Positions 20,681-47,061 of a stretch of 64,000 bases of DNA are shown in pieces; the stretch's first letter is position 1; each line of letters begins with the position of its first letter. Both the position numbers and the translations under genes were made by a program. Below the pieces are notes generated by a model, which was not told where the DNA came from, did not search any database, and saw only the letters and a program-made list of their open reading frames with translations. This stretch comes from Takakia lepidozioides (lineage: Eukaryota; Plantae; Bryophyta). The stretch lies in the NCBI GenBank assembly GCA_030704615.1, contig CM060732.1:39618001-39682000 (forward strand). The letters run 5' to 3'.

Positions 20681-20977
20681 TGTCATGCGCATACATATCG
20701 CTACACAACTACATCGTTGTCCAAAACCACACAACACATGTGCACACCAAACACTAGTCTATCACTAGTCTATCACTAGTCCACCACTAGTGCATCGCTA
20801 GTCCTGCCACTAGTGCAACCACTAGTCCACCACTAGGCTGCCACTAGCCACCCACTAGTGAGCCACTAGTCCAACCACTAGGCTGCCACTAGCCACCACT
20901 AGTACAGCCACTAGTCCAACCACTAGGCTGCTACTAGCCACCACTAGTGCAGCCACTAGTCCATCACAATCGCCCCC
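20681..20977 (-). repeat. Terminal B segment with tandem 10-11-bp CCACTAG(T) repeats
   Basis: Homologous to 34866-35062 (reverse) and 44321-44445; repeat number differs between copies. Confidence 0.9.
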
Positions 20978-21749
20978 GATAAAGAAAGAATGATACAAGC
21001 ACACAAGCTCTCTCGAAGAAAGCAGCTAGCGCGTGAGCGTGCTCATGTGAGCGCGCTCACGCTTAGCGCACTAAGCGTGAATAGATTCCCTTAAGCGTGA
21101 GCAGAAAATGGAAGTGGAGCATATAACCGTGGAAGAAGCAGGGCCTATTGTTGTGGATGCAAACTTGTGCAAATTGGAGGGTAACATACCATGTCGGGAC
21201 CGAAGACGCCAACCTCCATGCAAGAAAATCTGAGATGAATGTGCACGAAAAACTTTTCGATGAAGGTAAGCAAGGATGAATGGCAAAGATGAATGGATGA
21301 ATGTAGGATGAATGTGGAATGAAAAATGATTGGATGAATGTACCATAAATGACTGAAATAAGATTGCTTGTAAAAGAACATTCATGACATTCATGGGATT
21401 CATCTCATTCATCTCATTCATTCATCTCATAGAAAGTGTAGCCATAACCCATAAAACAAGATTGATCGAGCAAAAAAAATTGTGGCGGACGTAGATCAAT
21501 GTGACATTGGAAAAAATGCAGATTTTGATGGCCTTCGTTGCCAATAACCAGCACGAAGGCATTTGCAAGTCCACCTGGTTGGAACACAAACATGTATTGC
21601 AAAACAAGATTGAAGATTGATCTCAGTCTAAGAAAATGTTGTCATTAACCAGCATGAAGCCATCTCCAAAGTCGGATACACTTTAGATTTTCATAACAAT
21701 GACATGACATAATAACCGGCAGAGTTGCAATGCAAATCCCGACTACATC

Positions 21750-23053
21750 TCAAATTGAACCCGAACTATCTCGCTGCAGTTGTGTATGAACGTCACCGAG
21801 TCCTAATGTACATTGGTGAATGTACGTGTCCCGTTTAGGATCGCAAAACATCCTCTGAATGTAGATGTAGTAAAGATGCTTGCACGGGACAAATTTGCCT
21901 CTCTTACCAAGAGAGCTTGAGAGCGTGTTCTGAAAGTCCGGACAAGTGCAACTAGGAAAATCTCCAATGGTAATCTCATAGGTCCTGTCATGAACATCCG
22001 ATCTAGAGGTGGCCATGGTGTGCACCCGCCCATAGCCTGACAAGGGGATATTCACAATTTGGGTGACGCGACACTGCAGGGTTCTAGCAGACTTTATCTT
22101 GCACTCATTATCTACACCAGCCTCAACCCAAAATACCGCATTTCCATTCTTTTTTGTGGACCAATTGTTGTCTTGTCGAGGACATGCAGGAAAGTTGGAA
22201 GGGAAAGCCATTGGAGAAACCGGCGTTACGACAGTTGGGCCTCTCAGAAGGCGAAACCCGGCCTCCTCCAGCATGTCAATTTCCAGTTTGGAGAGTGTGG
22301 TTCCTAACTTCAGTGGCCACACGGCTGGAATTTGAGGCTTCATTATCACAGAATCCCGAACAGTCCCCATGACACAGCGCACAGTGTCATCCGGGCAGAA
22401 CCAAAACTTGTGAGGCCTAGACTCCCGCGACATGTAATGCTTGAACAAGCCGGTGAATGTCGAGGCAGGAGTTCCGCATGTCCCCTTCGAAATCTAGGCG
22501 GTGCACTTCTGAAACGAGGGTGCCCTAATAGCGACACACTTGACTTTTGATCCTTGGGAGTCCGTTCTATATGCCACATTGCCTCTGTACAGTCAGACTC
22601 CACTACCGGCAGCATGTTCTCCCCTTCTCCTCGGACTGTAGTGGTTGGAGACTCGAGAGGGAACGATGCTGAAGAAGATTCATCCACGAAAGTGGGGGGG
22701 CACAGGCACACGAGGTACCGAGAAGTTGTCCCTATCGTGGAATTGAGCAGGCCATTAACAAAGCAACGGATTTATGCCGCAAAAACATTGTCACAGCGTT
22801 CACCAAACAGCTTCGTATAGCTGATCCTAGTCTCGGTGCAGGATTCCTGGACCAGGTGCGGCTCCATTGGAACAAGAGTGACAAGCCAGAAATGACATAG
22901 GAGAAGTGGCATAGGCTTGCAATGGCAATGGTGGAGCCAAAGCACAAGATGCGATCGCTTAAGATCTAGAACTCTGACCCTGTCCTCTGTCAGGCAAACA
23001 ACTTTCATTTCGTGGGGCCTTTCAGCGATGTCGACTGGGACAAGTGGCTCCAT
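21750..23053 (-). pseudogene. SWIM zinc-finger protein remnant, probably transposon-associated
   Basis: YEITIGDFPSCTCPDF...CKHLYYIY (CxC...CxH SWIM). Upstream part broken by a frameshift (about 22545) and a stop (about 22495). Flanked by palindromes at 21047-21080 and 23457-23757. Confidence 0.7.
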
Positions 23054-24152
23054 AAAGCGACATTTTGGTGCCAGGTGCAGAAATCATCCTGCCTTTGTCG
23101 TCGCAATAACTTGCATTGAAATTACAATTGTTTGTAAACGCATCGTAACACAAGCTTGTGTCTTGGCAGCTGGAGGAGAGGGGTTTGGAAGTTATGGAGC
23201 AAACTCTTCATGACTTCAAAATCGAGGTAATTTAGCCCGATGAATCTTTCGGCACTTTCATTCGGAGGTGGAAAGAGATTGTTTGGAAGTATGCCTTCTT
23301 TCGTGAATTTGCAATAAAGGGGGGAATTCTGTGCTCTAATCTGTTCAATGCGTAGTACAATGGGGAGCAGGCAATGAAGCGAGTCAATTACAGGTTAGAT
23401 TGGAACTACATTCCCATTTGCATTTGCTTCCTTTTAGACCCGATTGCACTCTATGTTCAGGCTTGCGCTAACGCAAGTCTGATCACAGTATTTGATATGG
23501 CTACGTACCTTGGTATCACAGACGTTTTTGTGCACACCGTTAACGCAAGCCTAAACCTTGCTCTGAAACTCTTCCCCTTCTTACACTCTGTGCACTTGTG
23601 CAAATCCAAGAAAACCACAACAAGACTGACCAAGAGTGTTTTTTTATTTTATTTTATTAATATTTTTTAATATTTTTTAATTTTTTTATTTATAAAACAT
23701 TTACGAAAGGGGACTGTTTTCAGACCAGGGTTCAGGCTTGCGTTAACGCAAGCCTGACCAAGAGTGTGTTTATTTTTATTTATTTATTTTTTAATCTTTA
23801 ATTTTTTATAGGAAAGGGAACTGGTTTCAAACCAGGTGTCAAGTTATTTTACCACTAGTGTGAAACTAGCTAGGAAATAGCTAGCTTTTACATATTGACA
23901 TTTGGGATTGGCCCAAGTGTCAATCCAGGGGTCAAGGCAGATTTAGGCCCTGGAGTGGTTATCTTCACGGCAAGCGCGGGAGGCTCATCTTTCTCGAGTT
24001 GAGCCTCACCGCGCCTAGCTATGGCGCCGTAGTGTGGATTCCCCATGGCGTGGGGTGCACTTGGCTTGACTTGTATTTGAGTGATGAGGTTATATATGCA
24101 TGAGTTTATGCTTCAGATTTGTGAGCTCGTGCTTGTATCCTTCTTCTTTATC

Positions 24153-24169
24153 ACTCGAGAAAGATGAGC
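24153..24169 (+). promoter_or_regulatory. Self-priming primer-binding site (Tf1-like)
   Basis: ACTCGAGAAAGATGAGC is the perfect reverse complement of 23983-23999 in the A segment and directly follows ...TTTATC(A). The pairing is nearly conserved in the other two copies. Confidence 0.7.
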
Positions 24170-25596
24170 TCGTATCTGTGAGTGCCAAATACGAGTTAGT
24201 TGTAGCACTTGTGGTTTTTGCTTGAGAATGAGAGAAACCAAGTGGTTATGCAAGGAGCACCGTGGAGCTCTTGGTTGTTAGAAGCGGAGGTGATGTGGGT
24301 TACGAGGTGGTAGACCTTGGCATTCGATCTTCAGCTTCAGAGATGAAAGCACCATGCTGCAGGTAATTCCAGAGCACCTTGATGGTTTCAGATTGTGTAC
24401 ATGCATGAGCAAGCACGATTGGGAAGAGGACCAGTCAAGAGCAGGTTATAGTGGCTTTGGTGGCAAAGCTGAGAACTGGACTTGGGAATGCGAGCTTTCA
24501 TTGTGTGAAGGATTGCAAGACCAAGCGAAAGGGTTGATTTGGCTTGGGGCAAATTAGTGCACCTTGTGGAGTATGGTGAGATTGGGTTTCCATCTCGAGC
24601 TTCAGCATTGAGAGGGCTCTTGTCATGGCAAGAGCAGGGCTGGAACAGGAGCTAAGAGGTGCGGCAAGGCCATGGAATGTGCACCTAGGGTTTCAGAGCT
24701 TGGAAGAAGAGCTCTTGCACCACAAGAGAAGTGTCTTGTGGCTGGAAATGTAAGCCTTAGGGTTTCAGGAGCTTGGCAAAGGCTGTGGAGTGCTTAGTCT
24801 TGTCTTAGAGAGCATCAAGGAGCCAAGGAGCCAAGATAGGGGGCTGATATCTCTTGTGTGAAGAGGTTGCATGTGTGGAGCATGTATTCAGCTCATTGAA
24901 GCTTCCATCTTCAAGCTTGGAGGGCAAGCAAGGAAGTGGGAAGGGCTGACTTCCCTTATGCGAGGGCAATGCATGTGTGGAGCATGCTATCAGCCTGATG
25001 AAGGCTTGCACTTTCAGGTTTGTGGGTGCAAGAAATGAAGCAAAGGAGCTGATTCTCTTATGGTGAGAGTGGGGCATGTGTGGAGCATGCCTTCAGCCCA
25101 TTGAGGCTCTTGTTTTCAAGCTTTAGAGAGCTAGAACGGAAGGTCTAGGGCTGGTTTCCACTTGGAGTGAAAGAAAAGCACTTGTAGGGCCTATGTGAGT
25201 TGGGGTTTCAACTTCAAGCTTGAAGGGAGCGCAACTCTTGAAGCAGCAGGTGTAGGGGGCTGGAATAGGCTCTAAGACAGATGTTATGGCCAAGGAGAGT
25301 GCTTGAATGAGTGCTCACAAGGGCTGGGAACCAGCAGGGCTTGGTTGTTTGCCATTGAGTTTAGTGGCGTGTTTGGGGAGGCTAAGTGAGAAAGAAGGCT
25401 TGGTTTGTGGCAACCACCTCATGGCTTAGGGCTACTATGGTGGTGTGTGGGAGCCGAAAGAGCAAGAATACCTTGTTGATTTCCTCACAGCCGCCATAGC
25501 TCAGTGGAAAGAAGCCTAGAGTCCAAGAGAGACAAACCCTAGCTTGGCGTGGCTAAACCCCTTCGAGAAATGGCTAAACTGCTAGAGCGGCCATGG

Positions 25597-26660
25597 ATGG
25601 GGCTGTGACGGGCTGTGCCTGAGGCCTTTGGGGCTGTGACGGGCTGTGTCAGGCCGTGCCTGAGGCCTGTGGGGCTGTGACAGGCTGTGCCCAGTGGCCT
25701 GTGGGGCTGTGACGGGCTGTGCCCTGTGCCCTGTGGGGCTGTGACGAGCTGTGACGGGCTGTGCGGGGCTGTGACAAGCTGTGCCCAGTGGCCTGTGGGG
25801 CTGTGACAGGCTGTGCCCAGTGGCCTGTGGGGCTGTGACGGGCTGTGAGGGGCTGTGATAGGCCATGCTTGAGGCCTTTGGGGCTGTGATGGGCTGTGAG
25901 GGGCTGTGACAGGCCGTGCCTGAGGCCTTTGAGGCTGTGACGGGCTGTGAGGGGCTGTGACAGGCCGTGCCCATGGCCTTTGGGGCTGTGACGGGCTGCG
26001 CCAGTGGCCTTCGGGGCTGTGACGGGCTATGAGGGCCTGTGCCGGTGGCCTTCGGGGTCGTGACGTGCTGTGAGGGCCTGTGACGGGCTACGCCGGTGGC
26101 CTTGGGGGCTGTGAGGGGCTGTGTCAGGCCGTGCCTGAGGCATGTGGGGCTGTGACGGGCTGTGAGGGGCTGTGACAGGCTGTGCCCGTGGCCTTTGGGG
26201 CTGTGAGGGGCTGTGACAGGTTGTGCCCAGTGGCCTGTGGGGCTGTGACGGGCTGTGCGGGGCTGTGATAGGCTGTGCCCAGTGGCCTGTGGGGCTGTGA
26301 CGGGCTGTGAGGGGCTGTGACAGGCTGATCCCGTGGCCTTTGGGGCTGTGAGGGGCTGTGACAGGCTATGCCCATGGCCTTTGGGGCTGTGACGGGCTGT
26401 GAGGGGCTGTGTCAGGCCGTGCCTGAGGCCTTTGGGGCTGTGAGGGGCTGTGGCGAGCTGTGACGGGCTGTGAGGGGCTCTGACAGGCTGTGCCCAGTGG
26501 CCTATGGGGCTGTGACGGGCTGTGCGGGGCTGTGACAGGCTGTGTGGGGCTGTGATGGGCTGTGACAGGCTCTGGCGAGCTGTGACGGGCTTTGAGGGGC
26601 TGTGACAGGCTGTGCCCAGTGGCCTATGGGACTGTGACGGCTGTGACCAGTGAGCTGTGT
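25597..26660 (+). repeat. About 1.05-kb GC-rich minisatellite, 10-bp core GGGCTGTGA(C/G) with higher-order units
   Basis: Directly visible; lies in the 5' untranslated region of the inner element. Confidence 0.95.
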
Positions 26661-27396
26661 GGGCCTGTGCTGGTCTGTGGTGGCCCATGTTGACCTGTGG
26701 ACGGCCTGTGCTGACTTGTGGAGGCACTGGTGGACTGCCTAAGGACTGGCATGTGGTCTGGAAGGCCGAATTTTGAAGCTCGTGGAGGGCGGTTTGAGGA
26801 GTATCTTCATGATATTCCCATGGTCATGCAAGTGAGGGAAGAGAGGAGAGGAAGAGTGTTGGGATAAGGGCATGTTGGGGTTAGGCATTGCTTTAGCTTC
26901 TCTTCCTTGTAGTTTCCACCCTCTCATTAGGCCAAGACCTTTCCGTAGGTGGAGGCAAGAGTCAGTCCGGGTTTGGGCTGGGGTGTCCTTGCAGGAGCAA
27001 CACCGTAGAGTTGTTTTTGGTGTGGGGGAGTTATCGTTCTGATTTCTTGTGTTTGGATCCCCTCCATACCTGCATGCTTGACTGTGCGCCATGCTAGTTT
27101 TGTGTGGGCGCTTGTTTTTATAGGTGATTGGTCCGGATTTGATCACCGGCCAGTCCTAGAGCATGATGTCGATGGTGAGGCTGGGGTGATGACCAGCCAG
27201 ACCATCATTGTTTCTCCTGTGGTGAGGTTGGAGGTGATGACCAGCCAACCATAGGAGTGCTTGCGGTGGATGCAGGTACAGGTGTAGGCTATGTTAGGAA
27301 CTTAGTATTCCAAACCATAAGCCGCAACAGGTTCTCTACCCGGTTACCTTGTAGAGAGGGGGTTAGGGACATGTTCATGACCGGTTGAGTGTCAAC

Positions 27397-29030
27397 ACGG
27401 AGGTGCCACTAGTTGCTGGGGACAGTGCCGGTTTGAGCACTAGCGATACTAGTGGGTACACGAGACTAGGTGTGCGGTTTAGGCCACCTTCACCTCCTGT
27501 GTCTTCCACGGAAGGTTCTGATTCGGATTGTGAATCAGGAGGACTCATACCGGCGGTGCAAGTTGTTTCTTTGCCATTGTTGTGGGACACAATGGAGGAG
27601 ATATATGGAGCTACCAAGGGGCCACAAAGGTACTCTGGGGCGGTGGGCACCATCGAGTTGGATGATTTTATCCAAGAGTTTGATAGTTGGTGTGATTTGC
27701 AGCAAATGCGCAATCCACAACTATTTACGCCGTTCATGGCATGGAAAGGGCTGTTTCAGCACCTTGAGGGGCCGCCTATGGATGATTACCATGAGTTCAG
27801 ACGGGGGCATGAGGTTGAGATCGAGGAGTGGAGGATGTACTGGTCACCCGACTATGTCTCCATCACTAGGGGCACTAGAGCCACGAGGGCAGTGGCTACA
27901 CCTGCCGCTGCACTGGCAACTTCAGCAAGTAGCAGAGGGACTACTGGGACTGGTGGTACAGTAGCTACGACGTCCACCCAAGCCACTACCGCACCAGCAC
28001 TAGTACCCGTGCCTGCCTTCAACCCTGTTGTGGAGTTCTTCGAAGAGTTGAGAGGGAACTACCAAGGGGTGAGGACAGAGAAGTTGCGGAGCTTGCAAGA
28101 GTTCCAACGGAAGCCGACCGAGAGCTTGAGGGAGGCTTTCACTCGCATGAGGCGCTTGATAAATGTAACCCAAGGGGTTACGGAAGCTCAGGCAGTCCAA
28201 TTCTGGTATGGGATATTGGACAAGGAGCTGAGGAGAAGGGTGCGGGATGCAACTCTCCTACAAGCGGCCCAACCCACCTTAGCAAATGTGTTTTTGCTGG
28301 CAGAGCGGATAGAGCTCAACATGGTGGAGGAACGAGTGGTCATGGTGGGATTTGCTAAGGAGACACCATGGGGTAGTGGTGCTCCTAGCCAACCACTACC
28401 TCAACGTGCTCAAGGCAACAAGGGGGCTCAGGTGAAGCTCAGGGAAGGGCAGAGAGGACCTCAGATGCAAGGGTCTCTCCCTTCATTAGCTGGCCAACAA
28501 CGGGCGGAGGTGGTGTGCTGGACATGTGGAGGACCCCATGTCAAGAAGGATTGCCCAGAGGGAGGCAAAGGGTCGGCACATGCACAGCCTGCACAGTTGC
28601 AGTGTGGGCATTGTGGCAAGCATGGGCATGGAGAGGCCCAGTGTTATGGTTTGCATCCTGAGTTGCGCCCAGGTCAGTTCCAAGGGAACAATGGTGGCCG
28701 GGGGCGAGGTGGAGCAGCCCAGAGAGGACGAGGTGGCCAGCCACAAGGCCAAGGGCAAGCTCAACGTGGCCAAGGACGCGGAGGTCAGGGTGTTGACCAA
28801 GGCATGGCCAACCGGCTTCAGCAGCTAGAGCAGAGGCTCGCTGCCATGGCTACAGCTCAAGTGGTACCGGCTCTAAGGCCGGATGGTCCACCTCCTGCTC
28901 CTGAGGGAGGAGATATGGGAGGCATGGGATTCATGTGTGGAGCAGCACTACCACTAGTGCAGGTGGAGTCTGCTGCAGCCGTGACTCGAGGAGCAGCACG
29001 AGTTCCTGAGCCACGAGGTGCAGAGGTGAG
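27397..29030 (+). CDS. gag: Retrotransposon Gag with two zinc knuckles (start codon is ACG here, ATG in the outer copy)
   Basis: Gag core (FQRKPTESLREAFTRMRRL), CWTCGGPHVKKDC and CGHCGKHGHGEAQC, RGG-rich tail; frameshifted after about 29030. Confidence 0.88.
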
Positions 29031-29224
29031 TTGGATCCACAGCGTGGGGAGGCAAGCCGTCAGGCTAGGCTTCCTCAGTCATTCACATTGGCGGAGACAG
29101 TGTCGACGCCATCCATGGCACCTAGTTCTCGCCCGACGGTTACCGAGGCGGAGGTTACTATGCCATTGGGGAGAGCTACACGGTAGCACCACTACCTAGT
29201 GTTGCCAAGGCTGCGGCAGCTAGT

Positions 29225-29900
29225 GTGCTGCTAGGAGCGGCCACATCTGTGTGCCAGGCTCCATTGTTCTCGGCTACCATGATTGCGACGCCGGGGGTAA
29301 AACCAGCTGAGGTGTTCAAGCTGGCAGCTACACTCTGTGAGAGTGGGGAGGTTACTTCATCTTCTGCGGAGATAGTGGGAGGTGTAGTGCCAGAGGGATC
29401 CTCGGATTTGAGGGTCAAGACTGCCACGGCGGCGCCATGGCAAGCTGCAGCTGTCAGGTTGATGGAGCTGCCAGCTAGGCCAGCCATTGAGCGCGCCATG
29501 GTGACACCTGGAGTTGTCATGTTAGACAACCGGGATGGCATTTTCTGTTTGAGTGGACCGGCAGGCAAGAGGTACCGGCCACTGCGGGTCTTGTTGGACT
29601 CGGGAGCTCAGCCATTGATGCTGGGCAGAGCTGCTATTGCAGGCTTGGGCCTCACGGAGGCGGATATGGAGCCTTGTCCTTTCCAGATACAGACGTCTCT
29701 GGGAGATCGGAGCAGGCTCGGGGCATGACACGGCGTGAGTTGGCTATCAGACTACGGCCGGATCACCCTACAGATGGCTCAGTGATGCGAGCCAAGGCCA
29801 TTGTGACAGACGCGGTCTCATACGATGTCCTGGTTGGTGGGGCAGTGTTGTACCCCATGGGCTTCACCCTGGATTTTTGGGAGGAGTCAGCTTCCTATAG
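29225..29900 (+). pseudogene. Retroviral-type aspartic protease domain (frameshift at about 29700)
   Basis: RVLLDSGAQ active site and downstream YDVLVG motif. Confidence 0.85.
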
Positions 29901-30297
29901 GCCTGCATGGCAGTCAGGGGAGGGCCGGCGTGTGCAGCTTCCTGTGACGTTCATAGGAGGAGTTGCGGTTGCCCAGCGAGGCAAGATGCCGACACTAGCA
30001 GCATTCACAGCGGCAGTGAGTTGGCCTAGAGAGTTGCTTGAGGGCAATGCTCATTTAGAGGATGTACCACCTCCGGGAGAGCAGGATGACATGTATGGTA
30101 TGGCGGAGTTGCCTACCATGGTTGCTCAGACTCCATTGTGGGGCACGAGCAAGGATTTGCAGCGGGATGCTGATCGATGGGTGCAACAAGCCTGGGTGGA
30201 GGCTTTTGTACCGTCAGGAGAGGAGGAGAGTGTGGGGATTGCACCAGGACCACCTCAATTGTCTCCATTGGACACCACACCTATTGTGTGGCAGTAT

Positions 30298-31270
30298 CCG
30301 GATGAAGGCATTTGTCTTCTGGACTTGTTTGGCGGGATCAGCACCGGATTGGCTGCTGTGTTACAAGCAGGTGTACGAGTTCGGCGTTACTTGTATGTGG
30401 AGAGGGATGAGACTGCACGACGCGTTTCACTTTGCCATGTTGCTCAGTTGGTGCAGCGGTACCCTGAGTTGTTGTCGGTGTCTGCAATTCGTGGATATCA
30501 GCAGGCCTTGCCAGCAGACATTTCGTTGCTGGGGGCGCAGGATTTGGAGCGGGTTGGCTCCATGATCTGGTAGTGGCAGGTTGGCCCTGCCAAGGGCATT
30601 CATCAGCCGGGCATGGCAATGGATTGCGAGACTCGAGGTCGGGTCTGTTTTGGGAGATGGTGCGGGTTTTGCGCCACTTGCAGCTTCATCAAGCTGTATC
30701 TCCAGCATACATCTTGGAGAATGTGCCACTGATGGGCGATTCTCGGGCCAGGGTGATGGCCAGTGTGCATCAAGTCCGGTCGTGGCTTGGGTCAGCAGTG
30801 TTGCTAGATGCAGCTACAGTGGGGTCACGGGCTCATCGTCCACGGCTATGGTGGACTAACTTGATGCCACCCGCACTGCTCAAGCGTGCATTTGATGGGG
30901 TGTAGCGGCCAGCACATCTCACAGTGGATAACATTCTGGACACAGGGAGGCACTCTCAGCGTGTGAGACACGATGACCGTTCGCCTTTGGCAGTGGTCAA
31001 CAAGGTGGGTCAACCACGAGCAGCATTACCTACACTGCTCAGCTTCCCAGGATCGCATGCTTTCCGGGATAGTGGACCTGGCCTCCTGTGGGATGCTCAG
31101 TTGCAGCAGTTAGTGGAGCCTAATGCTGACGAGCGTGAGCGGGCAATGGGTTTTACCACTGGTACTACGGCGGTGTCGTGTCTTTCTGAGGCATCACGTC
31201 GTCAAGTGTTGGGGCAAGCAATGGATCTCAATTGCTTGACCTGGATTATCAGCTTGGCTCTGGCTGAGCA
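30298..31270 (+). pseudogene. DNMT3-like C5-cytosine DNA methyltransferase domain inside the retrotransposon polyprotein
   Basis: Motif I LLDLFGGISTG, II YVERD, III ADI, IV DLVVAGWPCQGHS (catalytic PC), VI YILENV, VIII AHRPRLWWTN, IX ERERAMGF, X RRQVLGQAMD, in canonical order. 1-nt frameshift at about 30563 and TAG at 30903. Confidence 0.93.
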
Positions 31271-31556
31271 ACGCAGAGTGCGGAGTACACTTCCCTCAAT
31301 GGTCTCTCTGCCTACCGAGACGATACAGGCAGTGAGTGGGGGCGAGCATGTGAGGACCACGGGGTGCATGCATCCATGGCACACGTGGGAGGTGCTCGAG
31401 GTTCAGAGGGAGTTGGCAGCCAAGGCGGCTGTGATGGATGAGGTTGGGGATTCTTCTCGGATTGAGGAGGTCCTCAAGGATGAGATGATGGGGCAGGATG
31501 AGGCCTTGTCATTGACTGAGCAGGCAGGGAGTACTGCTCAAGAGGTTGCAACATAG

Positions 31557-34614: not shown

Positions 34615-34863
34615 TGGCAGTGGACATGACTGGAGGCAGCTAACAAGACATGGGAGGCCAAGCTCATAGGAGTCAATACATGAGATCCCATGCTCAAGTT
34701 CACAGGTTGCAAGACAGCGACTAATGATGGGGCAACTCTTGCACCCGGCCTCTTGATCTATCGAGTTTGAGTGTAGTAGGGATAATGGTGGAGGACTTAG
34801 TGAGGCTATGGTCACTATCACATCTTGTGGCTACCTGGACTTAGAGGGACCTAAGCACCAGCT

Positions 34864-34874
34864 AGGGGGGCGAT
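34864..34874 (+). promoter_or_regulatory. Polypurine tract-like plus-strand priming site
   Basis: AGGGGGGCGAT immediately before TGTG at 34875; GGGGGCGAT-TGTG also occurs at 20977-20965 on the minus strand. Confidence 0.65.
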
Positions 34875-35411
34875 TGTGTGGACTAGTGACTGCCATAGTG
34901 GGCAGCATAGTGGCAGCCTAGTGACTGACTAGTTGTAGCCTAGTGGTTGGACTAGTGGCTGGACTAGTGGTGGACTAGTGATATACTAGTGTGTGGTGTG
35001 CACATGTGTTGTGTGGTTTTGGACAGCGATGTAGTTGTGTAGCGATATGTATGCGCACGACAGCTGTCAAGTTATTTTACCACTAGTGTGAAACTAGCTA
35101 GGAAATAGCTAGCTTTTACATATTGACATTTGGGATTGGCCCAAGTGTCAATCCAGGGGTCAAGGCAGATTTAGGCCCTGGAGTGGTTATCTTCACGGCA
35201 AGCGCGGGAGGCTCATCTTTCTCGAGTTGAGCCTCACCGCGCCTAGCTATGGCGCCGTAGTGTGGATTCCCCATGGCGTGGGGTGCACTTGGCTTGACTT
35301 GTATTTGAGTGACTTGCAACCTGTGAACTTGAACCTGAGATCTCGGGTATTGACTCCTATGAGCTTGGCCTCCCATGTCTTGTTAGCTGCCACTAGTCAT
35401 ATCCACTCCCA

Positions 35412-38400
35412 CTATCCCAAGCAGTATGGACATAACCAATCTCCATCATGAACCCTCTCAAGAGGTGGTGTCAAGCATCCCATGTGCCAACCTCTTGAGC
35501 ATCGATCACACACTAGCATAGTGGCAGCACCACGAGCATGCCCCAACTCTTCATTGGCATGCCGCACTAACCGTGCACGCTGTGTTGGGTGAAGCACAAT
35601 CCTCACCCGACCATCCTCCCACACTCGAAGCAGGTGTATCCCCCTCCTTGGCAGTCACACTAGCTGTCGTGTGTCCAGTGCGGAGATAATCCATCACAAC
35701 TGAATCCTCATGTATATCTCTGGCACCACCTGACTCATCTTTAGCCTCAGGGTCCTCAGACACTCTGTCTACAGTCATCCCTGTTATAGATCCAACCTGA
35801 CCTCCCGATGCCAAGATACACAAAAAGACAGATGCATGCCATCCCGGCATTATCTCCTCGTCCGTCTCACCATGCCACCGAGCTCCAGTGTCATCCTGCT
35901 GGCTCGTGCATGGATTGCGACTCAATCCATCCGCATCCCGATTGACCAAACCCGGTTGATGCACCACCTGAATATGTCTCTCATGCTCCTCCACCGTAGC
36001 ACGAGAGGCAAAGCAATTCCTGTAAGCCCTCAAGAACCGCCGTATACGTCGTCTCTCTCCTCCAGTGACAATGGGTCCAATGTCAGGCTCCCAATTGTCC
36101 TCTATAACTGCAACCTTAAGTCCAGCAGACTTAGAGGTAGAGGACGCGTCCAGTGGTTGCTATGTTGCAACCTCTTGAGAGTACTCACTGCCTGCTCAGT
36201 CAATGACAAGGCCTCATCCTGCCCCATCATCTCATCCTTGAGGACCTCCTCAACCTGAGATGAATCCCCAACCTCATCCATCACAACCACCTTGGCTGCC
36301 AACTCCCTCTGAACCTCGAGCACCTCCAATGTGTGCCATGGATGTCTGCACCTTGTGGTCCTCACCGGCTCACCCCCACTCACTGCAAGTACCGTCTCGG
36401 TAGGCAGAGAGACCGTCAAAGGAAGTGCACTCCGCACTCTACGTTGCTCAGTCATAGCCAAACTGATAATCCAGGTCAAGCAATTGAGATCCATCGCTTG
36501 TCCCAACACCTGACGACGTGATGCCTCAGAAAGAGAAGGCACCGCCGTGCTCCTAGTGGAAAAACCCATAGCCCGCTCTCGCTCGTCGGCATTAGGCTGC
36601 ACTAACTTCTGCAACTGAGCATCCCACATGAGGCCGGGTCCACTATCCAAGAAAGCATGTGATCCTGGGAAGCTGAGCAGTGTAGGTAGTGTTGCTCGTG
36701 GTTGACCCACCTTGTTGACCACTGCCAAAGGTGAACGGTCATCGTGTCTCACACGCTGAGACTGCCTCCCCGTGTCCAAAATGTTATCCACTGTGAGGTA
36801 TGTTGGCCGCTACACCCCATCAAATGCACGCTTGAGCAGTGCGGGTGGCATCAAGTTAGTCCACTATAGCCGTGGACGTGAGCCCGTGACCCCACTGTAG
36901 CTGTATCCAGCAACACTGCTGACCCAAGCCACGACCGGACTTGATGCACACTGGCCATCACCCTGGCCCGAGAATCGCCCGTCAGTGGCACATTCTCCAA
37001 GATGTATGCTGGAGATACAGCTTGATGAAGCTGTAAGTGGCGCAAAACCCGCACCATCTCCCAAAACAGACCCGACCTCAAGTCTCGCAATCCATTGCTA
37101 TGTCCGGCTGATGAATGCCCTTGGCAGGGCCAACCTGCCCCTACCAGATCAATGGAGCCAACCCGCTCTAAATCCTGCGCCCCCAGCAAAGAGATGTCTG
37201 CTGGCGAGGCCTGCTGATATCCACGAACCGCAGACACCGACAACAACTCAGGGTACTGCAGCACCAACTGAGCAACATAATGGAGTGAGATGCGTCGTGC
37301 ACTCTCATTCATCTCCACATACAAGCAATGCCGTACCCGTACATCTGCCTGTAGCACAGCAGCCAATGGTGCTGATCCCGCCAAACAAGTCCAGAAGGCA
37401 AATGCCTTCATCCGGACACTGCCACACGATCGCACCCCGTGGCTGAGGAACTCGTGCTGCTCTTCGAATCACTGCCGCAGCTAATTCCAGTTGCACTAGT
37501 GGTAGTCCTGCCCTGCACATAGTGGTAGTGGTAGTGTTGCCCGACACTAGTAGTAGTGGTGCCCCACCCACAGTGGTAGTGGTAGTGGCACCCCTCACCA
37601 GTGGTAGTGGTGCCCCACCCATAGTGGTAGTGGTAGTGGTAGTGGCACCTCTCACTAGTGGTAGTGCTACCCCGCACATGAATCCCATGCCTCCCATGTC
37701 TCCTCCCTCAGGAGCAGGAGGTGGACCATCCGGCCTTGGAGCCGGTACCACCTGAACTATGGCCATGGCAGCGAGCCCCTGCTCTAGCTGCTGAAGCCGG
37801 TTGGCCATGCCGTGGTCAACACCCTGACCTCCGCGTCTTTGGCCATGTTGAGCTTGCCCTTGGCCTGCACGTCGTGCCTGGCCACCTCGTCCTCTCTGGG
37901 CTGCTCTACCTCGCCCCCGGCCACCATTGTTCCCTTGGAACTGGCCTGGGCGCAACTCAAGATGCAAACCATAGCACTAGGCCTCTCCATGCCCGTACTT
38001 GCCACAATGCCCACACTGCAACTGTGCCGGTGCCAAACCATTTCCTCCCTCTGGGCAATCCTTCTTGACATGGGGTCACCACATGTCCAACACACCACAT
38101 CCACCCGTTGTTGGCTTGCAAATGAAGGGAGAGACCCCTGCATCTGAGGTCCTCTCTGCCCTTCCCTGGGCTTCACCTGAGCCCCCTTGTTGCCTTGAGC
38201 ACGTTGAGGTAATGGCTGGCTAAGAGCACCACTACCCCTTGGGTTACAATAATCAAGCGCCTCATACAAAGCCTTTCTCAAGCTCTTAGTAGGCTTCCGT
38301 TGGAACTCTTGCAAGCTCCTCAACTTCTCTGTCCTCACCCCTTTGTAGTTCCTTCTCAACTCTTCAAAGAACTTCACAATAGGGTTGAAGGCAGGCACAA

Positions 38401-38983
38401 CCACTGGTGCTGGTGCAACAGTAGTTTGGGTGGACGTCGTAGCCTTTGTACCACTAGTCCCACTGCTACTCACTGGTGCAGCTGCCGGTGTGGCTGCTGC
38501 CCTTGTCCCTCTAGTGATGGAGACATAGTCGGGTGACTAGTACATCCTCCACTTCTCGATCTCAACATCGTGCCCCCGCCTAAACTCATGGTAATCATCC
38601 ATGGGCGGCCCCTCAAGGTGCTGAAACAGCCCCTTCCATGCCATGAAAGGCGTAAATAGTTGTGGATTGCGCATTTACTGCAAGTCACACCAACTATCAA
38701 ACTCTTGAATGAAATCATCCAACTCAATGGTGCCTACCGCCCCAGAGTACCTTCGTGGCCCCTTGGTGGCTCCATACATCTCCTCCATTGTGTCCCACAA
38801 CAATGGCAAGGAAACAACTTGCACCGCCGGTGTGAGTCCTTCTGATTCACAATCCGAATCAGAACCTTCCGTAGAAGATACAAGAGGTGAAGGTGGCCTA
38901 AACCGCACACCTCGTCTCGTATACCCGCTAGTATCGCTAGTGCTCGTACCGGCACTTTCCCCAGCAAGTAGTGGCACCTCCAT
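35412..38983 (-). pseudogene. Deleted gag-DNMT-PHD coding remnant of the outer element (PR, RT, RNase H and integrase core removed)
   Basis: Homologous to 27397-34614. Junctions PRGA|IVWQCPDEGICLLDLF, CFA|SRATVEEHERHIQV|VHQPG and EELGH|ARGAATMLVCDRC. DNMT motifs I-X at about 36440-37430. Confidence 0.9.
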
Positions 38984-41545
38984 GTTGACAAACTGACACT
39001 CAACCGGTCATGAACCTGTCTCTAACCCCCTCTCCACAAGGTAACCGGGTAGAGGACCTGATGCAGCTTATGGTTTGGAATACTAGGTTCATAACATAGC
39101 CTGCACCTGCACCTGCATCCACCACAGGCACTCCTATGGTTGGCTGGTCATCACCTCTAACCTCACCACAAGAGAAACAAAGATGGTCTGACTGGTCATC
39201 AACCCAGCCTTACCATCGACAGCATGCTCTAGGGTTGGATCGGTGATCAAGCCCGAGTCAATCACCTATAAAATCAAGCGCCCACACAAAACTAGCATGG
39301 CGCACAATCAAGCATGCAGGTGTGGAGGGGATCTAAACACAAGAATGAGAACAACAACTCCCTCACACCAAAAACAACTCCACAATGTCGCTTCTGCAAC
39401 CCAACCCAAACCCGAACTGACTCTTGTCTCTACCTACGGAAAGGTCTCGGCCTACAGAGAAGGTGGAAAGCTACGAGGAAGGGAAGCTAAAGCAATGCCT
39501 ATCCCCAGCACGCTCTCATCCCAACACCCTCTTTTTTTCTCTCTTCTCTCACTTGCATGACCATGAGAGCATCTTGTGGATACTCCTCAAACCGCCCTCC
39601 ACAAACTCATGAAACTTGGCCTCCAAGGCCCCATGCAAGCCTCCACAGATCCGCCAGTGTCTCCTTACGTCCACCAGTCATTCCTCAAAACGGAACCACC
39701 TCAAGAAACCACGCCATCCACTGAAGGTTCAAAAATGGAGCAGATAGAGGTACATATAGGCCCCAACAACATTCTGTCCAAAAGAATTACCTGCAGGCTG
39801 GTCTCCCCCATAGTTAAGAATTGGGTTGAAAACCCCAAAAGATTATCTGCAGGGAAGTAAACCTTTTTGTTAAAACGCAACAAGGAGGCAATTCCGACTT
39901 TTCTGCCGGATTAGCTAGCTCAAAACCATTGTTCTTCAGAGCCCAGCCTCCCCATCAAGGTCCCACGAAACGAGTGAAAAAATGTTTGTTTTTTGTTTTT
40001 GTTTTTTTTTTCACTCTGGCTGTTCGCGGCCATACGTGGCTCCAACCGCCACGACCCCTCACGGCCCACCCTAGGCGCTCGTTGGCCACGGGCTGCCCCG
40101 TGATACCCCGTGGTACCACGCCCACGAGCCTTCACGGCCCGCCATCCCCACGATCTGGTCACTTTGCCCACCCGTGGTGTCCGTATCACGGCTTCCCACG
40201 GTCATGGTCAATGGTCACGGTCAACAGTCATGGCCTGGGCTCGTGGTATCTTGTGATACCGCCCCCACGGCCCATCACGGCCACTGTTTCTTGCGTTCCC
40301 AGTAGCTCTCCACGAGTTTCCATGCATTCCCAGACGTTCCCGAGCTCTCCCCGAGTTGGGGTTTGCTCCTACACCTGCTACCGACGAGCTATGGCTTTCT
40401 GCGGAGCCATCAGCCCCGTCGCCCTGCACTCCTGAGCTCTCATGGCCCACTAGAAGCGCCCCCAACTCAACAAGCAAGCTATATGCTGCCCAACAAGCTC
40501 TCTTTTCTTCATGAAGTTCACAAAAACAAATCTGAAAATACACGCCTTTACAACCTTGGTGTACCTGCAGTTCTACTGTACATTCGTTGGCTCTAGGACG
40601 CCTTGTTGCTGCCTTTCCAGCCCCCGCTCTTGCCACTCCAAGAGCCCTTACACTGCTGAGTTTCAAATTGAAACTCCAACTTAGCACATGTTTCACAAGT
40701 GCACTGATTTGCACACAAGATGGACCAACCCCATCTCTTCACTCATACCTCTTCATGAACTTGGAGCTGAAGCTCCCAATGGGCTGCAATGCATCCCCTC
40801 GTAGCTCCACCATTTGGCTACTCCTCATCTACCCGCAACAACTAGTTTCGGGCAGAAATACCTGGAGCTGATCATATCATCTCCAACCTACAACACGCTA
40901 GCTTCCTATGCGCAGCCCACATTTCTGCAGCTCCTCAACTCGGCCTGCAGCTCAAGAAGACGACCACAGTTCGTCCACTCGTGGCGAGCATCTCCTCCGC
41001 TTCACACTGAACCGCATACTCAGTGCCATAGCATTGAGCTATGCAACACTGACCACCTCTCTATCCATTGCAAACCTGCAACTTGTTCGCCTTTGCACTC
41101 TATCCGCTTTGGATAGGCTCATGCACGGATCCCTGCACTCTAGGCTGAACCGCTTTTCATGATCTGAAAACACAAGTGCTACAACTAACTCGAACCTGGC
41201 ACTCATAGACTCAAGCTGATCTTTCTCGAGTGATAAAGAAAGAATGATACAAGCACACAAGCTCTCTCAAACTCACATACTTGCACATGAAAACATCACT
41301 CATATATTAAGTCGAGCCAAATGCACCCAGGCCATGGGGAATCCACACTACGGCAACATAGCTAGACGCGGTGAGTCTCAACTCAAGAAAGATGAGCCCA
41401 CCGCGATCTGTCGTGAAGATAACAACGTCAGGTGCCCAAACATGTATTGGCCCTTGGATTGACATTTGGGTCAATCCCAAATGTCACTATATAAAAGCTA
41501 GCTATTTCCTAGCAAACTTCACACTAGTGGTAAAATAACTTGACA

Positions 41546-43340
41546 AGCCCGAATAGCTAAGCCTAACTGCCTCTTGTTCGAATCAAGAGGGGGAAAGTCG
41601 CGAGTGTACAAGTCACAGATGTAGGCAATTTTCGCACAACTCAAGCTATGGTCAAACATAGTCATTTTCTCTTGGCTTTTTGAGTCTTCACAGTCTTTCA
41701 AACGAATACACTCCCAGAGAATATAGTGACATATGGAATGCGCTCAAGAGGACATTGGAAAGGATAAAATCCAATTGTCTTGTCTTTCACCTTTCCCGGG
41801 AGGTTCATGTCATCATGCAAATGCCACGTTAGACGCATCAAGAGGCTCTCAAGAATATCTCCAGCGGCAATGACCTTCGGCTGACAAATTTGAAAATTAT
41901 TCCAATTCTCATAGAAATCCTGCAAAAACACTATAAACTGAGCCTCGCTGGTCTCCTCTTCAAGCTCCAATTTCGTATCCACTTCTTGAATGGCTTGCAA
42001 CCGTTGCCTTCCCTTTTCATCATCAAAAGGGTACTTGTGCCAGTAGGATCAGCCAGAATATCACTAACTTCCTAATTGGTCAAAGGTAATGTGGCCAACC
42101 TGTAACATATATCCTTAGAGGTTCTAATCTCCTTTACTGTATGGAGCTCAAACTTCACTGGTGAATCATTAACCGACACCCCAAGGTTGCCATTTCACCA
42201 AAGTACTACAACCTGTTGAGCAAAACGAAAAAAATACGCAATATCAATTATCAGCATCTTCAGGATTGACCCTTGTCGAGAATACACGAATTGCAAAAGA
42301 ATATACCAAATGTTGACAGCAAGTCGGTGCAAACCATAGCCGAATAACCTAACCACAATGTTTCAAAATAAACATAAAACTAAAAACTCCTCCGGATAGC
42401 GAGCTCGCCCCGCACAGAGGCACACGCATTCTCCCTCACTAACACACTATCTCACTCATCAACAAAAGCTCATCTTCACCTACGCACCAGATCTTAAAAG
42501 CTACTCTCGATGCAAACTCGCCTTATAACGTCAGCTAGGATTCACCAACGGCTTGTGCAGGGTTCATTTCGAATCCACCTGGATACCTGTAAATGGAAAA
42601 TCAACATTATATACTCAAGAATAAAAGTTTAAAAAAAAAAAAAAAAACATCAAGGTACATAAAGTAAAAACAAGGTGCATAAATTTACATCTTCTTGATC
42701 TCAGACCCACACGCAATAGTGGCCTCCAGTTGTTGCACAAGTATGTGAGGTGCTACAAATCCTGCATCAAAATGAATCACCAAACTCTATTTTGTCAAAT
42801 GTAGAGCAGTATAGACTTAGGATCCCCAAAGTACTCCAGCAGTTCCAAACAGCCAGAGCCCATGGATGAAACCTAGAACCACGTCTCGAACACAATAATC
42901 TCAGCGCCTACAAACTACAACAACGTTGCAAAAGGTTACGATATAATCATAACCAGACCCGCTCTGTTGGTGGAACAACCTACATGAGACGAAAATTCCC
43001 TTTGCAGATTATCAAGACTACAATAGTGGCATTCATACTCAAAGCCAAAAGCACATTTTCATGAAACTTACGCCGCCACGTTTAACGCTACAGAAACCCT
43101 ATCCCTGACGTATATAACAAACTATCAATGAAATATGGCCCTGATAGATGTATCGCAGTTTTCACTTCCCATGAAAATTCGACAACCACACCTTCTCCTT
43201 CTGGCCATATCCCGATGAACTCATGATGAAACCTCAGTGGCCAGAACACCACAACTTGATCCGCTTCTCTAAGCAATTCTCCCACCTTATCTCCGAAATA
43301 AAGCGTCAAAATTAAGAATCCACTGCTGCTAGCTGGCAAA
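41546..43340 (-). pseudogene. Degenerate unidentified coding remnant interrupted by the outer retroelement (continues at 20680 downward)
   Basis: Broken ORF pieces 43088-43339, 41698-42000 and 41546-41701; frame continues across the AGCC TSD. No recognisable motif. Confidence 0.3.
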
Positions 43341-44320
43341 AAGCATTCCCCATAGGCATAAGCATTGACTAGCGCTCAATTGGCAAAGATGCCCACAATG
43401 ACGCAACCATATTTCAAAACATCATCAAAATGGCCTCAAACGATTAGCACGATCCACGGTTATAGAGATGATATGTATGCCAGAGGAAAAACATATAATA
43501 GATGAACATAGGATCTTTCCGCGTTAATAGGGTCTACATAGTGTCTAAATACAATCTTATAAATGTAGAAGGAGCTTGAAAGGGAGAAACCTTAAAAAAA
43601 AACAAAAAACCAAACCCCAATTTCGCTTACGAAATCCAAGTTTCGCTGGCAAAAATACAAATTTCGTTGGCAAAAACCCAAAATGTGTTTGCGTTTTGCT
43701 GGCGAAACCCATTTTCTGGGGTTGTTCTTGGGGGTGTTCTACACACAATGTTTTACCAAATGCCACATTGTTTACGTTCGCTGACCTTTCAATTCTAGCA
43801 TATGTGCTTGTGGGTCTTTGTGCTCATGTGAGTTAAGCTTTAGACAATTAATTTCATAAGTTTTGTCGTGTGAAAACGGTTTTCAGATAGTTTCGTAATT
43901 TTTTTTTCACGTGAGCACATTTCGGTTTCGCTACGCATATTCTCCGGATTCTTGGGGAATATGCATAATATGCCTCTGTACTCGTGTGAGCTTGCTCACA
44001 CGCTACCCAACCTCGGGAAGAACCAATAAAGATGTACCCTAACATAGGGGTATACATCTTGGTCCCAAAATCTGCCACACATTATATATCTGGTATATAT
44101 ACCCAAATATGCCCAATGGTATATCTGGGTAAAAAATGTACCCACCCATTACTCCAACCCATTGTTCCCAGTGAGAAGATTAGTATGATTAGATGCCACC
44201 AGGGAGAGTGAAGATGAGACAAATAGTATAAGGATATTAAGTAATTCTAATTTTGTGAGTTTATCCCCTTACTTTTCACTCTTGGATCCCCCTTCACTGT
44301 GATGTCAAGGGCATTACCCC

Positions 44321-47061
44321 TGTCGTGCGCATACATATCGCTACACAACTACATCGTTGTCCAAAACCACACAACACATGTGCACACCAAACACTAGTCT
44401 ATTACTAGTCCACCACTAGTGCACCACTAGTCCTGCCACTAGTGCAGGTTGCGGCATAGCAACCACGGGACGCGTCCTCTACCTCTAAGTCTGCTGGACT
44501 TAAGGTTGCAGTTACGAAGGGCAATTGGGAGCCTGACATTGGACCTATTGTCACTAGAGGAGAGACGACGTATACGGCGGTTCCTGAGGCTTACATGAAT
44601 TGCTTTGCCTCTCGTGCTACGATGGAGGAGCATGAGAGACATGTTCAGGTAGTGCATCGACCGGGTTTGGTCAATAGGAATGCGGATGGATTGAGTCGCA
44701 ATCCGTGCACGAGCCAGCAGGATGATACTAGAGCTCGGTGGCATGGTGAGACGGACGAGGAGATGGTGTCGGGATGACATGCATCTGCCTTTTTGTGTAT
44801 CTTGGCATCGGGAGGTCAGGTTGGACCTACAACAGGGATGACTGTAGACGGAGTGTCTGAGGACCCTGAGGCTAGTGATGAGTCAGGTGGTGCCAGAGAT
44901 ATACATGAGGATTCGGGTGTGTTGGACTACCTCCGCACTGGAGACACGACAGCTAGTGTGACTGCCAAGGAGAGGGATCGGACCCTACAATGAGCCAAGA
45001 GGTTCAAGTGGGAGGGGATACACCTACTTCGAGTGTGGGAGGATGGTCGGGTGAGGATCGTGCCTCACCCAACACAGCGTGCACGGTTAGTGCGGCATGC
45101 CCATGAGGAGTTGGGGCATTTTGGAGTGCGACGCACTCATAGTTTCCTGCAGGGGCAGTATTGGTGGCGTGGTATGCACACAGAGGTGCAACAGTTCGTG
45201 GCTAGATGCATGGTGTGTGACAGGGTGCGTGCTTCATTCAACGCCCCTACACCACAGTTGCATCCATTACCCATCATGGGATTGGGCTACAGATGGAGTC
45301 TTGACTTCGCAGGGCCGTTGCCATTGACGATGCGCCACCACAGATATGTGTTGGTGATGGTGAAGCACTTCTCCAAGTGGATTGAGTTGGTTCCATTGAC
45401 ACCATTGTTTGAACACCGTAATGCCACTCTTCCTCCTTTGAGTGCAGCCTCCCAATGACAGCCATCCATGCAAGCTTGTATTGGCCCCTGGTTTTTTTTT
45501 TTTTCCACTCTAACTGTACGCGGCCTTCCGTGGCTCCAACCGCCACGACTCCTCACGGCCCGCCCTAGACACTCGTTGGCCACGGGCTGCCCAGTGATAC
45601 CCCGTGGTACCACTCCCACAAGCCTTCACGGCCCACCATCCCCACGATCTGGTCACCGTGCCAACCCGTTATGTCCGCACAGCGGCTTCCAACGGTCACA
45701 ATCAACGGTCACGGTCAACCATCACGATCTGGGCTCGTGGTATCTCGTGATACCGCCCCAACGGTCCATCACGGCCACTATTCCTTGCGTTCCCTGGAAC
45801 TCCCAACGAGTTCCCATGCGTTCCCACGCGTTCCCGAGCTCTCCCCGAGCTGGAGTTTGCTCCTGCATCTGCTGCCGCTGAGCTATGGCTTCTGTGGAGC
45901 CATCAGCCCCGTCGCCCTGCACTCCTGAGCTCTCACGGCCCACTAGAAGTGCCCCCAACTCAACAAGCAAACTATATGCTGCCCAACAAGCTTCATTTCT
46001 CCACGAAACTCACAAAAGTGAATATGAAAATACACACCTTGATAAACTTGGTGTACCTGCAGTTCTACTGCACATTCCCTGGCTCTAGGACGCCTCACTG
46101 TTGCCCTTCCAGCCCCGCTCTTGCCACTCCAAGAGCCCTCGTCGTGCTAGAGTTTCAGATTGAAACTTCCAACTCAAGCACATACTTCACAATTGCACTT
46201 ATTTGCACACAAGAGGGACCAGCCCCCTCTCTTCACTCATACCTCTTCATGAGCTTGGAGCTGCAGCTCCCAATAGGCTGCGATGCATCCCCTCGCAGCT
46301 CCGCCATTCGGCTGCTCCTCATCTACCCGCAACAACTCGTTTCGGGCAGATACCTGGAGCTGATCATATCATCTCCAACCTGCAACATGCTAACTTCCTA
46401 TGCGCAGCCCACATTTCTGCAGCTACTTAACTCGGCCTGCAGCTGAAGAAGACGACCACCAGTTCGTCCACTCGTGGCCAACATCTCCTCCGCTTCACAC
46501 TAGAAGCCCAAACTTGGTTGTCATAGCGTTGAGCTATGCAACGCCGCTCTTCAACATAGGCTACTCGCCTCTCTATCCATTGCAAACCTGCAACCTGTTC
46601 GCCTTTGCACTCTATCCACTTTGGATAGGCTCATGCACGGATCCCTGCACTCTAGGCTGAACCGCTTTTCATGATCTGAAAACACAAGTGCTACACAACT
46701 AACTCGAACCTAGCACTCACAGACGCGAGCTCATCTTTCTCGAGTGATAAGGAAAGGAATGATACAAGCACACAAGCTCTCTCAAACTCACATACTTGCA
46801 CATGAAAATATCACTCATATATTAAGTCGAGCCAAGTGCACCCCACGCCATGGGGAATCCACACTACGGCGCCATAGCTAGACGCGGTGAGGCTCAACTT
46901 GAGAAAGATGAGCCCACCGCGATCTGCCGTGAAGATAACAACGCCAGGTGCCCAAACATGTATTGGCCCCTGGATTGACACTTGGGTCAATCCCAAATGT
47001 CAATATATAAAAGCTAGCTATTTCCTAGCTAACTTCACACTAGTGGTAAAATAACTTGACA
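44321..47061 (-). mobile_element. Small non-autonomous member of the same family; A...B form, 4-bp TSD CCCC, with an internally inverted pol fragment
   Basis: CCCC|TGTCGTGCGC at 44317-44330 and TTGACA|CCCC at 47056-47065. A segment 46746-47061, B remnant 44321-44445, plus-strand pol piece 44446-45398. Confidence 0.88.

Follow-up and report, generated by a model that had tools for sequence, protein, structure and literature searches.

Ty3/Gypsy-type retrotransposons of the green lineage with insertion ends at a palindrome inside the long terminal repeat

Retroviruses and retrotransposons with long terminal repeats (LTRs) are assumed to integrate linear cDNA by its ends, with circular forms regarded as by-products. 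A 64,000-nucleotide stretch of the genome of the bryophyte Takakia lepidozioides (assembly GCA_030704615.1, contig CM060732.1, positions 39,618,001 to 39,682,000; hereafter the window, in whose own numbering all window positions are given) raises the question of how a retrotransposon comes to be inserted by ends that lie within its LTR. The window holds three copies of one element, namely copy X (+, from 23837), which is nested within copy Y (-, 41545 to 20681), and copy Z (-, 47061 to 44321). A denotes here the part of the LTR that starts with TGTC(AAG) and extends to the end of U5, and B the part that follows the polypurine tract (PPT) and ends in GACA. The element is of the Ty3/Gypsy type, and its copies lie between 4-bp target site duplications (TSDs). 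We consider it fairly probable that joining of the cDNA ends yields a two-LTR circle, to be reopened by the integrase at a palindrome in the upstream LTR.

Insertion ends at a palindrome within the repeat

In the window, A starts are found at 23837 (+), 41545 (-) and 47061 (-), and internally at 35065, and B ends at 20681 (-) and 44321 (-), and internally at 35062. Three A starts and two B ends adjoin host DNA, and all five junctions fall at the palindrome GACA-GC-TGTC; the fourth A and the third B are joined through GC at 35059 to 35068, where the palindrome is intact. This coincidence, the core of the original prediction, is upheld by the longer patterns around it: the 26-letter A start occurs four times and the 23-letter B end three times, and neither was matched in any of 100 shuffles. 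If one mismatch is allowed, the bare 10-mer is found in the window at chance frequency; its weight derives from its position and conservation.

Comparison of the flanks likewise bore out the two expected 4-bp TSDs, AGCC on either side of copy Y (20677 to 20680 and 41546 to 41549) and CCCC on either side of copy Z (44317 to 44320 and 47062 to 47065). The claim that these are complete insertions did not hold, as both have rearranged interiors, Y by nesting and deletion and Z by deletion and an inverted block. Copy X reads A-ORFs-B-A (ORF, open reading frame) and comprises A1 (23837 to 24153, +; 317 bp, starting with TGTC and closing with TATCA at the end of U5), B1 (34874 to 35062, +; 189 bp) and A2 (35065 to 35312, +), which is shortened by a copy-specific deletion. 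Its A1 and A2 are identical over 248 of 248 positions, as against 216 and 228 identities with Y and Z, respectively (87 to 91%). Copy Y reads A...A-B, with A1 at 41231 to 41545 (-) and an internal part at 35313 to 41230 (-) that includes leader, decayed ORFs and some 3' untranslated region. In copy Z, A1 (46745 to 47061, -) is followed by a primer-binding site (PBS) and leader down to 45492, inverted internal fragments with the starts of the reverse transcriptase (RT) and integrase regions lie at 44446 to 45398 (+), and the tail of B, ending in GACA, occupies 44321 to 44442 (-). Since Z lacks the start of its B, we rejected it as evidence for a one-LTR circle and for the A...B form as which it had initially been read.

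To the window copies can be added a set of relatives, comprising 80 of 477 confirmed metagenome loci and 13 genome-bin loci, chosen by likeness of the integrase; viral contigs yielded one weak locus. The arrangement A-ORFs-B-A-B, which in the window had to be pieced together from the inner and outer copies, is present whole in five single relatives (L002, L056, L057, L058 and L065), and three more (L008, L024 and L032) display A-ORFs-B with both ends. The ten two-ended copies (Y, Z and these eight relatives) have an exact 4-bp TSD in eight cases and one that is a single transition off in the other two; lengths of 5, 6 and 7 give a match in none of the ten, and none of them has two whole direct LTRs at its ends. 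Merging the same insertion across assemblies left 36 groups of 3' ends, which terminate in GACA (28), AACA (7) or TACA (1). After removal of L027, whose contig ends inside A, all 35 retained ends are GACA or decay forms thereof, 17 of them closing with B-A-B and 18 with PPT-B only. At the 5' side, the corresponding A-B-A is seen in none of 12 ends (nine relatives and three in the window), versus B-A-B in 17 of the 35 3' ends (Fisher P = 0.002).

Across 14 families, with integrase identity down to 42%, the palindrome lies 49 to 189 nt after the G-tract; it is exact in ten, cut by a contig end in one and altered by one or two changes in three. Outside it, no likeness of A or B was detected between any of the 14 families except F4 and F10. 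The 17 internal att sites have accumulated 24 changes, all of them G>A (19) or C>T (5). No att was seen in L068, L036, L086 and L087, loci that end within or shortly after the ORF.

Contigs of four public runs aligned on 34300 to 35400 provide an independent view (runs X1 and X3 are of one sample and X6 is of another study; counts of loose ends are among the matches listed, 20 of 408). Contigs leave the element exactly behind 35062 in runs X1 (41) and X3 (33), their loose parts agreeing at 0.36 to 0.38 with a median length of 93 to 109 letters, and before 35065 in run X3 (22; agreement 0.40, median 103 letters); such low agreement is expected of different flanks. Run X6 contributes one further contig with a break at the palindrome. 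At 35312, contigs continue as A1 does (21 in run X1 and one in run X6), from which it follows that the break at 35312/35313 is private to this copy, as the prediction had assumed. No flanks at the B start are among the matches listed (20 of 408), and no loose ends behind the U5 end at 24153 among those listed there (18 of 80), a result that agrees with an absence of canonical right ends but is of little weight, as the A|B joint is not displayed there either. We rejected as flanks the loose ends behind 34878 (35 in X1 and 26 in X3; agreement 0.56 to 0.58, 13 to 18 letters), which retain the PPT side and are read as variants of B. Recurrence of the TGTC and GACA break points outside the locus, the lack of which had been named beforehand as one refutation of the prediction, is thus found both in public contigs and in the relatives: the internal break points are real and are family-wide and clade-wide.

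Some features of the assemblies deserve separate mention. Contigs end at or just past the palindrome in L049 (14205 to 14223), L088 (last 14 bases) and L027, as expected of a point where the assembly graph branches into many flanks. The overlapping ends of contigs L076, L079 and L082 were considered as circles and rejected, because any element with a repeated LTR assembles in this way. The loci L082 to L088 derive from genome bins labelled bacteria or archaea and carry a eukaryote-type retroelement, probably through bin contamination. The abundance of the element is illustrated by the 13,022 contigs of one run that fall on 1.1 kb of it.

The hidden repeat and the joint of its halves

If the ends of the insertions do not delimit the LTR, the replication signals do. 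Each B start found is preceded by a PPT or an A end, and each A end found precedes a PBS-type sequence or a B start; in every readable family, the likeness of A1 and A2 stops at the PBS and that of B1 and B2 begins at the PPT. In copy X, the PPT AGGGGGGCGA occupies 34864 to 34873 (+) and the putative PBS 24154 to 24169 (+). These positions establish B-GC-A as U3-R-U5, and hence an ordinary two-LTR cDNA is to be expected. This much of the earlier reading stands; it had missed that the PBS appears to be self-priming and not of the tRNA type, as it had the Dnmt3-like domain and the conserved in-frame stop described below. A segment at 23983 to 23999 (+), the predicted 5' end of the transcript, is complementary over 17 nt to 24153 to 24169. 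Comparable self-priming arms of 13 to 17 nt, 147 to 183 nt into A, are found in 5 of 11 families including that of the window, in each case above all of 30 shuffles, and the predicted leader of the window copy folds at z = -7.5. A TATA-like box precedes the arm by about 25 to 30 nt in families F1, F3 and F4, and none was found before the arm of the window copy. The promoter core would accordingly appear to be located in A. RNA run X13 has 0 reads on 24040 to 24260, which carries no weight on expression.

The outer 3' end of copy Y gives a direct view of where the two halves meet. It consists of the last 37 bp of A2 (21014 to 20978, -; the U5 end minus its final A), 8 PPT-like bases (20977 to 20970, -), whose letters are the same as the end of the PPT at 34864 to 34873, and B2 (20969 to 20681, -), which is the U3 part of the LTR and ends in GACA. 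The A piece matches the end of Y A1 at 37 of 37 positions, that of Z at 36 and that of X at 31, and therefore most likely belongs to Y itself. The A|B joint is the U5 end joined to the U3 start, as had been suggested for this copy; blunt joints of the A end to the B start are found in three family contigs (two in run X3 and one in run X5). Among the relatives, families F1 and F3 offer 12 distinct joints, of which 8 are blunt. The remaining four show extra PPT- or PBS-side bases, filler or deletion: bases from the PPT side are present in L003 (together with filler) and L014, two PBS-side bases in L043/L065, and a short deletion in L055/L056. That joints of one family differ by primer-side bases would fit cDNA ends that are joined anew. 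Further, the start of U3 varies by family (TTGTG, GTTGT, GTTTG, ATACA or CTTGA); thus, it is the palindrome that is conserved and not the true ends of the cDNA.

Candidate routes of integration

How might such a cDNA be inserted by a site inside its own LTR? Under the circle model, transcription would start about 145 to 165 nt into A1 and end in A2; given a start inside A1, the core promoter would stay in the inserted copy. The 5' end of the RNA would pair with the PBS and prime the minus strand as in Tf1, the PPT would prime the plus strand, and the product would be linear cDNA of the ordinary kind, bounded on either side by B-GC-A. The U5 end would then be ligated to the U3 start, mostly blunt, with primer bases sometimes left, lost or added; the joint itself is seen in the copies, and the proposal places it at this step. 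Next, the integrase would nick both strands after CA in GACA^GC-TGTC, and the resulting CA-3'OH ends with 2-nt 5' overhangs would be inserted 4 bp apart. A staggered cut of this kind, after CA, is consistent with both ends having lost exactly GC. Opening of the upstream att only would yield the A-ORFs-B-A-B pattern that is seen; our guess as to its cause is that the upstream LTR becomes double-stranded first in reverse transcription and may therefore be bound by the integrase first. This is the sole arrangement that retains promoter, PBS, PPT and a second R and could thus replicate again. The A-ORFs-B copies might arise from one-LTR circles, from cuts at both att sites or from later recombination of B1 with B2, and would be dead ends.

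Cutting by the integrase at the internal att is likely; the circle itself we infer. On balance, we also favor a broader proposal, that an old green-lineage clade moved its att from the cDNA ends to a fixed palindrome in U3 and that its normal integration proceeds from a two-LTR circle of which one chosen att is opened. This would be a natural realization of the circle-precursor model that was at one time put forward for retroviruses, and the layout would have converged with that of tyrosine-recombinase retroelements. With insertion ends that always lie within the LTR, at a 10-bp site conserved across green algae and land plants as the cDNA ends drift, this clade would provide a natural test case for integration from circles or internal sites by a retroviral-type integrase, with a defined substrate.

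Parallels are available for the postulated cleavage. In the insertion sequences IS3, IS30 and IS21, a DDE enzyme opens abutted ends separated by a 2- to 3-bp spacer, these being bacterial DNA transposons whose junction is made by the transposase. In the present element, the junction is instead encoded in the LTR and copied by the RT. A precedent for the chemistry is the integrase of foamy virus, which is reported to cut both strands of the palindrome at the two-LTR circle junction after CA and to leave 5' overhangs of 2 nt (PMC1180852). In that virus, it is at the palindrome that the cDNA ends meet, and circles are a side route. The palindrome of the present element is a fixed site within U3 and apparently the only one used.

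Several points weigh against the circle model, whose circle, transcript and cut are read from sequence. The A|B joint could equally be made after strand transfer. A two-LTR circle holds two identical att sites, so that A-B-A-ORFs-B should be as frequent as A-ORFs-B-A-B, yet it is absent from the 5' ends; therefore, a step that confers polarity, which the original prediction had not foreseen, must be added. For the 3' ends with PPT-B only, about half of the total, the model offers only candidate origins, and in 6 of 11 families no self-priming arm rises above shuffles within 450 nt. The sample consists of many related loci from few related metagenomes picked by integrase, in which solo units and canonical solo LTRs are hardly represented, and the search for ends depended on matching the 94 nt on the att side of some family example, such that ends elsewhere would register only as missing hits. 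Individual loci belong here as well: in L004, L005, L028, L029, L053, L064 and L081 the sequence stops or is interrupted ahead of B or within it, in L080 a stretch resembling B was matched by no family example, and in L022/L023 the first 79 bp of A are missing.

The alternative that survives best, which we nevertheless judge rather unlikely, is that the integrase cuts the upstream att of linear cDNA and inserts both halves, with host repair joining the free U5 and U3 ends after strand transfer. This route predicts the same ends, the same TSD, the lost GC and the marks of end joining at A|B, and a variant with cuts at both att sites yields A-ORFs-B directly, accounting for the many such copies (18 of 35) without one-LTR circles. 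It fits the sequence as well as the circle does, except that most joints are exact: were every insertion to leave a double-strand break, wrong joints should be common, yet 8 of 12 are blunt and exact. Its polarity problem is the same as that of the circle model.

A distinctly poorer candidate is suggested by the PAT, TOC, Ngaro and VIPER elements. Tyrosine-recombinase retroelements are not known to generate TSDs. Their split direct repeats have the same A1-ORFs-B1-A2-B2 layout (PMC4157794), and by analogy the transcript might run through A2 and B2, in which case the A|B joint would be passed on from copy to copy and template switching at the B1-A2 joint would restore the ends before the integrase acts. 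The observed polarity would follow without an added step. However, the likeness of A1 and A2 stops at the PBS and that of B1 and B2 starts at the PPT in every readable family, and joints within one family differ between copies by primer-side bases, as if made anew. Moreover, unlike those elements, the present one combines a DDE integrase with a 4-bp TSD, and no tyrosine recombinase was matched by Pfam in the scanned ORFs. Split direct repeats can hence arise without a tyrosine recombinase.

We attach even less credence to a Ginger-like mode, in which the element would move mainly as DNA, the integrase excising it at its TGTC and GACA ends and reverse transcription being secondary. Ginger shares the Gypsy-like integrase, and the termini here fit its TGTNR consensus and the 4-bp TSD of both Ginger and Gypsy (PMC2836005). 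However, Ginger has inverted repeats of 40 to 270 bp and no RT, whereas here only 4 to 8 bp of inverted symmetry are present and the RT, PBS and PPT are kept (PMC2836005). Further, copy X has identical A1 and A2 that are only 87 to 91% identical to those of the other copies, as when repeats are renewed at each reverse transcription. Finally, local rearrangement or misassembly of ordinary LTR elements, which the nested, deleted and inverted window copies might suggest, is refuted by the same break points in independent contigs and, with TSDs, in other families and assemblies.

Proteins, published relatives and neighboring features

By its proteins, the element is Gypsy, and by its ends it is not a canonical LTR element. 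The coding region of copy X, broken by frameshifts and stops, holds domains of the gag-like, DNA-methylase, RT, RNase H, H2C2-rve integrase and PHD kinds. The ORF1 region (27367 to 31556, +), with frameshifts and one stop, bears gag-like, protease-like and C5 DNA-methylase (Dnmt3-like) domains, the Pfam DNA_methylase match spanning 30468 to 30902; RT and RNase H follow at 31557 to 33048 (+), with one frameshift plus stops, and the H2C2-DDE integrase with a C-terminal PHD finger at 33049 to 34614 (+). The order gag-protease-RT-RNase H-integrase is found in the window, L007 and L082, the gag and protease matches of the window being weak or absent. As originally proposed, the enzyme is a DDE integrase, with an H2C2-DDE match and, as nearest solved chains, Ty3 Gag-Pol and foamy virus integrase. 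No chromodomain was matched on the integrase, the PHD finger standing in its place. Between the integrase core and the PHD finger, nearly all full-length rows of the alignment share a CAPCH motif (columns 872 to 878), a candidate metal-binding or att-recognition element.

The domain order, H2C2-DDE integrase, PPT, TG...CA ends, 4-bp TSD and self-priming PBS are shared with canonical Ty3/Gypsy elements, above all Tf1/Sushi-Tcn1; self-priming is documented in the Tf1/Sushi group, and for Tcn1 it has been predicted (PMC6317226). Unlike these elements, the present one ends inside its LTR with termini that are not direct repeats of each other, replaces the chromodomain with a PHD finger and carries a DNA methyltransferase (DNMT) domain. 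The survey in question admitted an element only if it had two terminal LTRs that were nearly identical, a requirement that the layout described here would fail (PMC6317226). More generally, LTR finders that need two terminal repeats miss an abundant class.

The original prediction had also held that such an arrangement was unknown for a Gypsy element. For the layout this went too far, as KnitGypsy-Dnmt3 of the alga Klebsormidium nitens is presented in the legend to Fig. 4c of PMC5890265 as having DIRS-type repeats with Gypsy domains, A-coding-B-A-B being spelled out in the same paper for SymbioDIRS. That element resembles ours in its Gypsy domains, Dnmt3-like methyltransferase in the pol region and DIRS-like repeats (PMC5890265). 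The report concerns one alga and, in the parts covered, mentions no att palindrome, TSD, PBS, PPT or mechanism (PMC5890265). Here, in distinction to the published description, a conserved in-frame stop parts the DNMT from the RT, and the clade takes in liverwort, moss and green-algal proteins. The comparison with the published copies is one of descriptions, as no identifiers for them were found. In the searched literature, outside which lie Repbase Reports and most subscription journals, the name KnitGypsy occurs in PMC5890265 only, and neither the att palindrome nor the mechanism was found to be described. Thus, the layout is already in print once, and for the internal att, TSD, primer-defined LTR and polarity we found no precedent there.

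Named relatives of the element come from liverworts, Sphagnum, Klebsormidium and Haematococcus. The integrase tree, which is midpoint-rooted, has long branches and contains no reference lineages, was read solely for the placement of named proteins: the window integrase is closest to proteins of Riccia and Calypogeia, in accord with a bryophyte host, and three integrases from K. nitens are placed among the families that bear att. The DNMT search returned 62 proteins, none of them a named K. nitens protein. The methylase domain of the unbroken relative L007 is nearest to DNMT3A/B among solved chains and 54% identical to that of the window. In the window's type, the DNMT-like domain lies before the RT (e.g., L007, 3763 to 4755), and in GC-rich loci just before the integrase (L068, 7762 to 8757; L049, 7617 to 8624; L088, 5830 to 6846; L076, 3 to 725); the captured domain thus appears from sequence to occupy two positions in the clade. 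It was not matched in L078. Several gene models of Marchantia polymorpha (P0137, P0138, P0141, P0142, P0144, P0145 and others), like P0182 of Sphagnum fallax, are DNMT-bearing ORF1 relatives, and retrotransposon-borne Dnmt3-like domains hence reach land plants. This gives annotated DNMT-domain relatives in a tractable plant, M. polymorpha.

ORF1 (gag-protease-DNMT) and the RT are separated in several families by an in-frame TAG followed by CAA-CCA, CAG-TTA, CAA-TCA or CAA-CCC. This is seen in the window as TAG-CAA-CCA (31554 to 31562, +), in L007 (5083 to 5091), in L082 (3489 to 3497) and in many F1 loci. We take this context to fit the CAR-YYA leaky-stop motif, and its conservation points to a likely read-through stop. 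If so, the DNMT would be part of the abundant product and the RT-integrase of the rare one.

The window has several further features. A tandem repeat array occupies 25598 to 26711 in the 5' leader of copy X. The insertion target of X was unrelated DNA inside A2 of copy Y (21015 to 23836; 2.8 kb), with a hairpin-rich left end (21020 to 21095), short repeats (23621 to 23807) and a weak SWIM zinc-finger match; no second copy was found among the sequences compared, and it is perhaps a Mutator-like or Helitron remnant. At 4672 to 10217 lies a region with non-LTR-type RT ORFs (6148 to 8721 and 8505 to 9236), which contains a 1.55-kb direct duplication (7064 to 8613 and 8644 to 10169) and inverted copies at 4672 to 5389. 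An RNase H ORF is found at 48310 to 49248 (+), and a PLS-class PPR gene with an E motif and an internal periodicity of 300 bp at 56064 to 58532 (+).

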